IMG/VR virus record: IMGVR_UViG_2681813227_000020
Location: 1 to 3,757 of that record
Length of the DNA stretch: 3,757 nt
Direction: 5' to 3' (one strand)
From: a virus
Lineage: Duplodnaviria; Heunggongvirae; Uroviricota; Caudoviricetes
Below, in pieces: positions 2,197-3,757 of this stretch. The notes beneath the pieces were generated by a model, which was not told where the DNA came from, did no database searches, and saw nothing but the letters and a program-made list of their open reading frames with translations. Numbering within the stretch: position 1 is the first letter of the stretch; each line of letters starts with the position of its first letter. Both the position numbers and the translations under genes were made by a program.

Positions 2197-2418
2197 ATGG
2201 CAGACCTCATTGATTCAGCATCAGAAATTGAAGAATTACAGCGCAACACAGCAATAAAAATGCGCCGCCTGAACCACCAGGCTATATCTGCCACTCATTG
2301 TTGTGAGTGTGGCGATCCCATAGATGAGCGAAGACGCCTGGCCGTTCAGGGTTGTCGGACTTGTGCAAGTTGCCAGGAGGATCTGGAGCTTATCAGTAAA
2401 CAGAGAGGTTCGAAGTGA
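2197..2418 (+). CDS. orf73: TraR/DksA-family C4 zinc-finger protein (lambda Orf73-like), 73 aa
   Basis: Protein MADLIDSASEIEELQRNTAIKMRRLNHQAISATHCCECGDPIDERRRLAVQGCRTCASCQEDLELISKQRGSK. Acidic N-terminal helix (D3, D6, E10, E12, E13) followed by Cx2C (C35, C38) ... Cx2C (C56, C59) with an extra Cys at 53, the hallmark architecture of TraR-like proteins. 73 aa, as lambda orf73. Stop overlaps ea22 start (GTGA at 2415-2418). Confidence 0.85.
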   Translation: MADLIDSASEIEELQRNTAIKMRRLNHQAISATHCCECGDPIDERRRLAVQGCRTCASCQEDLELISKQRGSK

Positions 2419-3053
2419 GCGAAATTAACTATCAGGAACTGCGTGAAGCGGCAGCGCAGGCAATGCATGACGACTGGGGATTTGATGTGGACCTTTTCCA
2501 TGAGATGGTAACACCATCGATTGTGCTGGCACTGCTGGATGAACGGGAAAGAAACCAGCAATACATCAAACGCCGCGACCAGGAGAACGAGGAGATTGCG
2601 CTTACGGTTGGGAAGCTGCGTGTTGAGCTTGAAGCAGCAGAGAACAACCTTATTGATAGTGAATGCCATGTTGCTGAACTGGAAGAAGCTCTACGCGATA
2701 AGCAGGCGTTACTTGAAGCCTCAGAAAAGCGCAACGCAAAATTACAAAGCGAGAATGCATACATCCGCAACCGGTACAAAGAACTGGACCTATTAATCGG
2801 GAAAAACATTCTGGTCATGCAGGCTGCCATTATCGAATGGCAGGCAACTGGCGACGCTAAGAGCGGACTAGCATGGATTTATAACACACTGTTTGGCCCT
2901 GGCGAATTACCGGACGAATCTGAGAAAGATGCTCAGGCCTACTTTAATCGCAAATATGCACCGATTGACGAAAAGCTTATGGCGCTTCACAAGTGGTTTT
3001 GGGAACAAAGTGAAGCCGAGCGCGCCGCTGGCATTCGCATCAAAGGAGAGTGA
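2415..3053 (+). CDS. ea22: Ea22-family protein, 212 aa, with a central coiled-coil segment
   Basis: GTG start at 2415 with SD AGAGAGG (2403-2409) 5 nt upstream. N-terminus MSEINYQELREAAAQAMHDDWGFDVDLFHEMVTPSIVLALLDERERNQQYIKRRDQENEEIALTVGKLRVEL and C-terminus ...AERAAGIRIKGE resemble my recollection of lambda Ea22, while the middle (heptad-like, E/A/L/K-rich: ELEAAENNLIDSECHVAELEEALRDKQALLEASEKRNAKLQSENAYIRNRYKELDLL) is different and longer (212 vs 182 aa in lambda). Confidence 0.8.
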   Translation: MSEINYQELREAAAQAMHDDWGFDVDLFHEMVTPSIVLALLDERERNQQYIKRRDQENEEIALTVGKLRVELEAAENNLIDSECHVAELEEALRDKQALLEASEKRNAKLQSENAYIRNRYKELDLLIGKNILVMQAAIIEWQATGDAKSGLAWIYNTLFGPGELPDESEKDAQAYFNRKYAPIDEKLMALHKWFWEQSEAERAAGIRIKGE

Positions 3054-3054
3054 G

Positions 3055-3258
3055 ATGAACGGACAAATCTCAATTGTTCGACCGGGAGCATGTGACGATT
3101 GCGAGATACGAATGATTATTCGTCTGGCGATGGGGAAAACAATAACTGCTCTCATTACTCCAGAAAATCTCGCATTAGCATTAACCGGAAAGTCAGACCT
3201 GCCAGTAGAGCTAAAGCTGCGAAATGTTGAGATTAAGGTGAATATCAGCAATGAATAA
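3055..3258 (+). CDS. Hypothetical small protein, 67 aa, with one CxxC pair (C13, C16)
   Basis: ATG 3055 lies 1 nt after the ea22 stop (TGA 3051-3053), with a GGAG Shine-Dalgarno (AAAGGAGAG, 3042-3050) upstream inside the ea22 3' end. Protein MNGQISIVRPGACDDCEIRMIIRLAMGKTITALITPENLALALTGKSDLPVELKLRNVEIKVNISNE. The ORF-track entry 2893..3258 is this frame extended upstream into ea22. It occupies the position where lambda carries ea8.5, but I do not recognise the sequence. Confidence 0.6.
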   Translation: MNGQISIVRPGACDDCEIRMIIRLAMGKTITALITPENLALALTGKSDLPVELKLRNVEIKVNISNE

Positions 3259-3330
3259 CAATCCTCGCATTCGCGGGGATTTCTTTTATCTGAACTCGCT
3301 ACGGCGGGTTTTGTTTTATGGAGATGATAA

Positions 3331-3498
3331 ATGCACTTCCGAGTCACAGGTGAATGGAATGGAGAACCATTCAACAGAGTTATCGAAGCCGAGAACATCA
3401 GCGACTGCTATGACCACTGGATGATATGGGCGCAGATAGCACATGCAGAAGTAACCAATATTCGAATTGAAGAACTGAAAGAACACCAAGCCGCCTGA
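3331..3498 (+). CDS. Hypothetical small protein, 55 aa, conserved-looking prophage protein of unknown function
   Basis: ATG 3331 preceded by GGAG (3320-3323) at 7-nt spacing. Protein MHFRVTGEWNGEPFNRVIEAENISDCYDHWMIWAQIAHAEVTNIRIEELKEHQAA has a globular-looking composition (aromatic core residues, charged C-terminal helix). Stop TGA 3496-3498 lies in the loop of a strong intrinsic terminator. Below the ORF-track length cutoff. Possibly related to small DUF-type proteins found next to xis in E. coli prophages, but I cannot verify this. Confidence 0.55.
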   Translation: MHFRVTGEWNGEPFNRVIEAENISDCYDHWMIWAQIAHAEVTNIRIEELKEHQAA

Positions 3499-3512
3499 TG
3501 GCGGTTTTTTTA
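3488..3512 (+). terminator. Strong rho-independent terminator (CCGCC-tgat-GGCGG followed by TTTTTTT)
   Basis: Perfect 5-bp GC stem 3491-3495 / 3500-3504 with loop TGAT, extendable by G-U and A-U pairs at 3488-3490 / 3505-3507, followed by 7 T (3505-3511). The loop contains the stop codon of the 55-aa ORF. Confidence 0.7.
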
Positions 3513-3556
3513 TTACCTGATTTGCAGGTTCGATTCCATATTCGGAGATAGCACTC

Positions 3557-3757
3557 ATGCAACACGAACTACAACCTGATTCACTGGTTGATTTGAAATT
3601 CATCATGGCTGATACTGGCTTTGGTAAAACCTTCATCTATGACCGGATTAAGTCCGGCGACCTGCCAAAAGCCAAAGTTATCCACGGGCGAGCAAGATGG
3701 TTATATCGTGACCATTGTGAGTTCAAAAATAAACTCTTAAGCCGCGCCAATGGGTAA
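3557..3757 (+). CDS. xis: Excisionase / AlpA-family helix-turn-helix DNA-binding protein, 66 aa
   Basis: ATG 3557 with GGAGA (3544-3548) 8 nt upstream. Protein MQHELQPDSLVDLKFIMADTGFGKTFIYDRIKSGDLPKAKVIHGRARWLYRDHCEFKNKLLSRANG. The motif around FIMADTGFGKTFIYDRIKSGDLPKAKVIHGRARW is typical of AlpA/Xis-type HTH proteins of E. coli prophages and is not lambda Xis. The position at the end of the left operon fits an excisionase followed by an integrase outside the window. Confidence 0.8.
   Translation: MQHELQPDSLVDLKFIMADTGFGKTFIYDRIKSGDLPKAKVIHGRARWLYRDHCEFKNKLLSRANG

Follow-up and report, generated by a model that had tools for sequence, protein, structure and literature searches.

The window, that is the whole stretch of 3757 nucleotides analysed here, is a run of genes on one strand that belongs to the early-left operon of a lambdoid prophage of E. 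coli. It starts with bet (1–786, Pfam RecT) and exo (783–1463, Pfam YqaJ), which are followed by homologues of lambda orf60a and orf63 (1454–1806; DUF1317 and DUF1382), a DksA/TraR zinc-finger gene (2197–2418), an ead/Ea22 gene (2415–3053), an open reading frame (ORF) of 67 aa (3055–3258) and another of 55 aa (3331–3498). The latter is the counterpart of lambda lambdap35 (orf-55) and the last gene of lambda type. Downstream come an intrinsic terminator (3488–3511), a spacer or leader (3512–3556) and a gene annotated here as torI (3557–3757), for a 66-aa winged-helix recombination directionality factor (RDF, or excisionase) which is also an inhibitor of TorR. All the genes and the terminator are on the plus strand.

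The Bet protein shares 259 of its 261 residues with that of lambda (99.2%) and Exo shares 221 of 226 (97.8%). The DNA is 96.8% identical to that of lambda across positions 1–2639 and 96.9% identical across 3255–3510. An earlier note on this DNA had described bet and exo as essentially identical to those of lambda, which these figures bear out. The 55-aa ORF matches lambda NP_597778 at 53 of 55 residues and PHROG 676 with an E value of 2e-39; in lambda, orf-55 likewise sits immediately 5' of xis.

The ead/Ea22 gene is itself a mosaic. The similarity to lambda ends within it, at 2639, and comes back only for 3026–3056, and the region matches HK620 at 2527–2634 and 3021–3254. In the window the gene is an intact ORF of 212 aa with a GTG start; its equivalent in the closest genome is flagged as a pseudogene that lacks the N-terminus.

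The terminator and the mosaic joint

The terminator at 3488–3511 consists of an 8-bp stem with five G-C pairs (3488–3507) closed by a 4-nt loop (AAGCCGCC-TGAT-GGCGGTTT) and of seven T's which extend to 3511. The calculated stability of the hairpin is −13.0 kcal/mol. With a T-run directly after a G+C-rich hairpin, it is an intrinsic (Rho-independent) terminator. The region contains five terminator-like sites, compared to 0.5 expected from shuffled sequences. Two more terminator-like hairpins with T-runs, at 3260–3281 and 3292–3311, stand side by side between the 67-aa and the 55-aa ORFs, so that torI and the Red genes have at least three terminator-like sites between them.

In Enterobacter, Dryocola, Citrobacter and a metagenome-assembled genome (MAG), the torI homologues are preceded at the same place by hairpins of other sequence, which are also followed by a T-run. 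The conservation of the structure without that of the sequence suggests that the insulation of the excision gene is a selected feature of the module. In four such loci, the hairpins lie about 40–70 nt upstream of the torI homologue and are all followed by a T-run and ATTGCCTG.

The similarity to lambda, which resumes at 3255, stops at 3510; this position corresponds to lambda 29106, the final T of the T-run. The similarity to the KplE1 prophage of E. coli K-12 starts at 3504, that to HK620 at 3451 and that to Sf6 at 3447. Since the lambda match runs to 3510 and the HK620 and Sf6 matches begin at 3451 and 3447, a segment of 60 bp (3451–3510, plus strand), made of the end of the 55-aa ORF and the terminator, is common to genomes of lambda type and of HK620/Sf6 type, and the switch from one module to the other takes place in the T-run. 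The joint between the end of the early-left region of lambda type and the start of the module of KplE1/HK620 type is thus placed at 3504–3510, between the limits of the lambda and KplE1 similarities. The common segment is likely to be the substrate of the homologous exchange behind the joint; positions 3480–3514 are matched at 99% identity or more by 122 phage records.

The earlier note had proposed that a Red module of lambda type is joined here to an excisionase which is not that of lambda, and the limits of the two similarities confirm it. The note had the region begin at 3513; its coordinates for the ORF, the terminator and the spacer are right, but the switch itself occurs 3–9 nt earlier.

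In 80 viral contigs that encode an identical TorI, the similarity to the window upstream of the gene begins at 3229–3330 (41 contigs), 3447–3451 (11), 3490 (14) or 3501–3507 (13); in none does it begin 3' of 3507, so that torI is always accompanied by the 45-nt spacer. When positions 3380–3640 are used as a query, the matches in E. coli genomes break near 3501–3514 (query positions 122–135). Out of 5426 complete E. coli genomes, 602 cover at least 80% of the length of this 261-nt query, which spans the joint. The joint is an ordinary and common mosaic of lambdoid phages, of a kind that is already known.

TorI and its recombination module

The ORF at 3557–3757 starts with ATG and its stop codon ends at the final base of the window. 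Its 66-aa product is identical, over 66 of 66 residues, to the "Tor inhibition protein" of PDB entry 1Z4H, that is TorI of E. coli K-12. The match to a protein whose structure has been solved excludes that the ORF is a chance one. The products of hkaC in HK620 and of gene 18 (gp18) in Sf6 are also identical to it, with genes 96–97% identical at the DNA level. The torI gene of the window differs from those of K-12, HK620 and Sf6 by four to seven nucleotides, all at synonymous third positions, which may be counted as a sign of selection. RefSeq calls this gene torI in the closest genome, and the protein matches PHROG 66, "excisionase and transcriptional regulator", with an E value of 3e-8. Judged by its sequence, the 66-aa protein is TorI, the RDF of the argW-specific recombination module found in KplE1, HK620 and Sf6. 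A single-sequence AlphaFold model of the protein was an all-helical artefact with a mean pLDDT of 56 and was dropped.

TorI is the RDF of the KplE1 (CPS-53) prophage and is needed for excision (PMC2951348, PMC3509656). It is a winged-helix protein that binds cooperatively to five sites in attL (PMC3509656), of the GTTCG, GATCG and GTCCG types (PMC2951348). The residues named as involved in DNA binding, F22, Y28, R45 and A46 (PMC3509656), are present in the protein of the window, which is identical to TorI throughout. TorI contacts the integrase IntS and represses the intS promoter, and it drives excision from the argW tRNA gene; TorI-dependent recombination between attL and attR has been shown for the identical protein (PMC2951348, PMC3509656). 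It also inhibits TorR (PMC3509656, PMC2951348). The earlier note had opposed a role in excision to that of a transcription regulator unrelated to it, an opposition that does not apply to TorI, which inhibits TorR, represses PintS and is an excision factor too.

That the excisionase at the end of the operon is not lambda Xis, as the earlier note had it, is confirmed by BLASTP, which gives no alignment between the two proteins at E ≤ 100; there is no match to the Pfam lambda-type excisionase either. The same note had described the protein as an AlpA-like helix-turn-helix excisionase. It is indeed an excision factor, but the AlpA label is overstated, as the scores are below the Pfam cut-offs and the protein is exactly TorI. 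Phage_AlpA (PF05930) gives 12.7 bits (E = 0.12), under the curated gathering cut-off of 21, and HTH_17 (PF12728) gives 16.9 bits (E = 0.008), under that of 27; the latter score is consistent with a distant relationship only. The NCBIfam search returned no family for the protein. K-12 AlpA shares just 6 of 20 residues with it, locally, over the helix-turn-helix. The AlpA protein of CP4-57 is, like TorI, a small prophage helix-turn-helix protein (about 70 aa) tied to excision. However, AlpA activates the integrase gene intA (RefSeq "DNA-binding transcriptional activator AlpA"), whereas TorI is an architectural factor and a repressor of intS.

Lambda Xis and TorI play the same role, that of a small winged-helix excision factor which directs the integrase, but TorI binds the arm beside the integrase gene (attL) and has an additional C-terminal helix (PMC3509656). 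In lambda, xis overlaps int, the two genes are co-transcribed and attP is downstream of int, whereas torI and intS are split by attP and transcribed separately (PMC2951348).

The best full-length match of the window is in the genome of E. coli OkiPb01711, with 99.0% identity across the whole window (38 mismatches). In this genome, the 16-nt att core CTGCAGGGGACACCAT is found 74 nt past the torI stop codon and is followed by the host gene dsdC. At the other end of the prophage, about 41 kb upstream of torI, are the argW gene and an IntS that shares 99% identity with that of K-12. The attachment site of the torI module is thus argW in the closest genome, and not the attB of lambda, in agreement with the claim of the earlier note that this is a hybrid lambdoid element whose integration specificity differs from that of lambda.

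The OkiPb01711 prophage (NZ_AP042673.1, 3132475–3173594), which extends between argW/intS and torI/dsdC, is P22-like: it has a tailspike, a P22-type capsid, gp4, gp10 and lambda-like O/P replication genes. This P22-like podovirus prophage carries a lambda-type gam-bet-exo set where HK620 and Sf6 have annotated recombination genes of the abc type. Seen from the side of the virion, the closest relative is an HK620-like phage that gained the Red genes of lambda, rather than a lambda phage that gained a foreign excisionase.

The arrangement is the same in the well-known members of the group. In KplE1 of K-12, HK620 and Sf6, the leader is the same as in the window from the T-run on (3504–3556), with one or two positions that differ, and an arm repeat likewise overlaps the torI stop codon. 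The spacing of the argW att core in K-12 KplE1 is that of the closest relative, whose IntS it nearly shares. The neighbours upstream of the leader differ: yfdT and ypdJ in K-12, and eaG-type genes and P22-type abc/erf-like recombination functions in HK620 and Sf6, compared to lambda orf-55 and the Red genes in the window.

The last bases of the window, TGGGTAA (3751–3757, plus strand), are the first seven nucleotides of the attP/attR arm repeat TGGGTAAAATAGCGGGTAAAATA; they overlap the torI stop codon, and the remainder of the repeat lies past the window. The repeat_region annotated as attP in HK620 (locus coordinates 3271–3293) maps to position 3751 onward. All the homologous loci, among them those of OkiPb01711, K-12, HK620 and Sf6, keep the GGGTAAA repeats as well as the att core at 74 nt past the stop. 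The window itself ends at the torI stop, and attR, the att core and intS are known from these close relatives. Many prophage contigs of IMG/VR end exactly at this stop codon, as the window does. Such an end is probably the boundary of a prophage prediction, set at the last gene, which trims attR.

In the phage form of HK620 and Sf6, the gene order is torI-attP-int on one strand (hkaC(torI)-attP-int in HK620). Since attP lies between torI and int, the two genes are found at opposite ends of the prophage. The earlier note had proposed to look for an integrase downstream of the excisionase, and had taken its absence there as an argument against its reading of the locus. This is the wrong test, because attP splits torI from intS: in OkiPb01711 it is dsdC that follows torI, even though TorI has been proven to act in excision.

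It is very likely that positions 3513–3757 are the upstream part of a recombination module of KplE1/HK620/Sf6 type joined to a segment of lambda type, with torI presumably expressed by read-through. They comprise the 45-nt leader and torI of the site-specific recombination module of KplE1 (CPS-53), HK620 and Sf6, to which the lambda-type early-left segment (from bet and exo to orf-55) is joined inside the T-run of the terminator. In the prophage, torI would close the leftward early operon and would abut attR, which is the layout seen in the closest relatives. The arm repeats for IntS would begin at 3751 and the att core would lie 74 nt past the window, with intS at the other end, beside argW, under an autoregulated promoter.

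The argW T-arm copy in the leader

The leader contains a conserved element that falls outside this explanation. Positions 3522–3537 (plus strand), TTGCAGGTTCGATTCC, are an exact 16-nt copy of bases 46–61 of the argW tRNA of K-12, that is the 5' strand of the T-stem, the T-loop and two more nucleotides. In argW these bases are immediately 5' of the att core. The number of 16-nt argW matches expected by chance is estimated at about 1e-4. The core of the copy, GGTTCGATT.C (3527–3537), is the sole invariant non-coding run in an alignment of ten lineages (from E. coli, Enterobacter, Serratia, Citrobacter, Pantoea, Edwardsiella and a MAG). The position of the copy is fixed in 75 of 80 viral loci, where its first base is 35 nt before the ATG. 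No such motif precedes the torI homologues of Dryocola, Tatumella, Arsenophonus, Proteus and several Pantoea and Erwinia.

Neither ARAGORN nor the Rfam search finds a tRNA gene or a tRNA family here. With permissive thresholds, the Rfam search of 3200–3757 gives only sub-threshold chance matches, for example isrK on the terminator, with 18 bits for a threshold of 50. No mention of this motif in connection with KplE1 was found in the searchable literature.

Of two further readings of the copy, one was rejected and the other found no support. The first considers the whole spacer as a decayed 3' half of argW, whose acceptor strand would have supplied the ribosome-binding site, but the part of the spacer that follows the motif is no more similar to argW 62–75 than shuffled sequences are (p = 0.2–0.95). 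In the second, the copy would be a hot spot of recombination, with argW::torI remnants left behind, but no chimeric arrangement of this kind is present in 5426 genomes.

The copy may tentatively be regarded as an inert fossil, the remnant of an older attachment sequence derived from the tRNA, or of captured host DNA, which would mark the ancestral left edge of the module. It duplicates the tRNA bases directly 5' of the att core, several lineages have unrelated sequence to the left of the motif, as is expected at an old junction, and some of the lineages that lack the motif keep the gene. However, a neutral relic would be expected to decay as its flanks do, whereas the core does not vary between genera. 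The lack of significant similarity between the remaining spacer and the 3' end of argW also goes against such an origin. One history of this kind would further lead to an argW::torI arrangement, which none of the 5426 genomes carries.

With nearly the same probability, the copy may be a working cis element that tunes torI, either as an operator for TorI or IntS or as a signal that acts at the RNA level next to the ribosome-binding site. The exact match of 16 nt is to the very tRNA that the module targets, which is hard to attribute to chance. The GGTTCGATT.C core alone is invariant in the ten lineages, where the flanks and the third positions of the coding sequence have diverged, and its distance to the Shine–Dalgarno sequence and to the ATG is constant. 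The copy contains the pentamer GTTCG, and TorI sites are of the GTTCG, GATCG or GTCCG type, with site I4 reading TGGTTCGC (PMC2951348). However, the GTTCG pentamer occurs in the window at the rate expected by chance, and a weight matrix derived from the five sites in attL ranks the motif outside the top 25 of the window, so that the copy was rejected as a canonical TorI site. TorI binds several sites cooperatively (PMC3509656), whereas a single conserved site is present here. The motif is missing in several genera and is therefore dispensable, and the 3' half of the T-stem has been lost in the E. coli lineage, which makes a T-arm hairpin impossible.

The best match of the TorI matrix in the window is at 3564–3571, on the minus strand. 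It falls in coding sequence whose codons other genera do not conserve, and is therefore probably due to chance. The GTTCG pentamers at 3528–3532 (plus strand) and 3565–3569 (minus strand) are inverted with respect to each other and bracket the ribosome-binding site and the start codon of torI.

Transcription of torI and meaning of the locus

In lambda, the pI-xis-int segment occupies the same place as torI does here, at the end of the pL operon, after the same orf-55 and terminator, the DNA being 96.9% identical as far as the T-run. There, the same T-run is followed at once by the cII box of pI, TTGCGTGTAATTGC, and by the xis start codon, whereas the window has a degenerate look-alike of the cII-type box. 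The spacer of the window, 45 nt long (3512/3513–3556), contains the Shine–Dalgarno sequence of torI, GGAGA (3543–3547, plus strand), 9 nt before the ATG, the GGAG of which (3543–3546) is conserved in the homologues. It also contains a TTAC-N5-TTGC box (3513–3525), a possible −35 hexamer, TTACCT (3513–3518), and a possible −10 hexamer, CATATT (3536–3541), which matches the consensus at four of six positions at best.

The earlier note suggested that this spacer may hold a promoter. A promoter has been placed by the annotators of HK620 ("phage integration", with a cII box) and of Sf6 (pI) at the counterpart of 3511–3549 (plus strand), and a dedicated start site for torI is possible on that account; these promoters and the cII site are predictions in the records, at the homologous position. 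However, a sigma-70 consensus scan of 3200–3757 finds no promoter, and neither the putative −35 nor the putative −10 hexamer is kept across genera in the ten-lineage alignment. No TTGC-N6-TTGC box is present in 3480–3757, even with one mismatch. The CII of the closest relative is only 33% identical to that of lambda, and its own pRE-like box has the N6 spacing. The spacer thus appears to hold just a weak promoter candidate, without the features of a cII-activated promoter of pI/pRE type.

Expression of torI by antitermination or read-through appears to account better for these observations. The presence of terminators of other sequence upstream of the torI homologues favours it, together with the published uncoupling of the transcription of the integrase and of the RDF, in which the supply of RDF controls excision (PMC2951348). 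The negative promoter scan also supports it. In the closest relative, Gam, kil and cIII are encoded upstream of torI on the same strand, as is a weak match to an N peptide (20.1 bits, under the Pfam cut-off of 27.9). Rho reportedly controls the transcripts of RDF genes (as cited in PMC11551753). The TorI protein would be made after induction, when leftward transcripts that are antiterminated or that escape Rho pass the terminators, and probably not from a strong promoter of its own.

In the alternative, which follows from the earlier note, a xis-int operon begins with an excisionase of the AlpA family, and both genes are driven from a promoter in the spacer. In a refined form, this promoter would resemble lambda pI and be activated by cII, with transcription beginning downstream of the ribosome-binding site; in the circular phage, Int would then be made without TorI. 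The analogy with lambda, whose pI start we take to be at the corresponding coordinate, would put the start near 3550, past the GGAG. The promoter and cII site annotated in HK620 and Sf6 speak for this scheme, as do the location directly after the T-run, where lambda keeps its pI cII box, the common strand of torI, attP and int in the circular phage, and the arrangement TTACCT-17 nt-CCATAT (or 18 nt-CATATT), which is weakly promoter-like. We consider it unlikely, as the consensus scan is negative, the box reads TTAC-N5-TTGC instead of TTGC-N6-TTGC whereas that of the relative keeps N6, the hexamers vary across genera while a different motif is kept, and the scores for Pfam AlpA and HTH_17 are below their cut-offs. 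The xis-int operon as such does not stand: attP separates torI from int in HK620, host DNA (dsdC) follows torI in the prophage, which makes a xis-int transcript impossible there, and intS has its own promoter, mapped experimentally, autoregulated and overlapping attL (PMC2951348).

The earlier observation is thus confirmed and its interpretation partly supported. The gene, the structure of the protein, the recombination module and lambdoid mosaicism are all well described, and the value of the present analysis lies mainly in a correct annotation: the element is best called an argW-integrating prophage in which excision is controlled by the supply of TorI. The T-arm copy in the leader is the sole feature that has no existing explanation. 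If it is functional, it would be a small addition to what is known of the control of excision-factor expression in a well-studied system; as a cis element, it would couple the expression of the excision factor to the same tRNA-derived sequence with which the module recombines.
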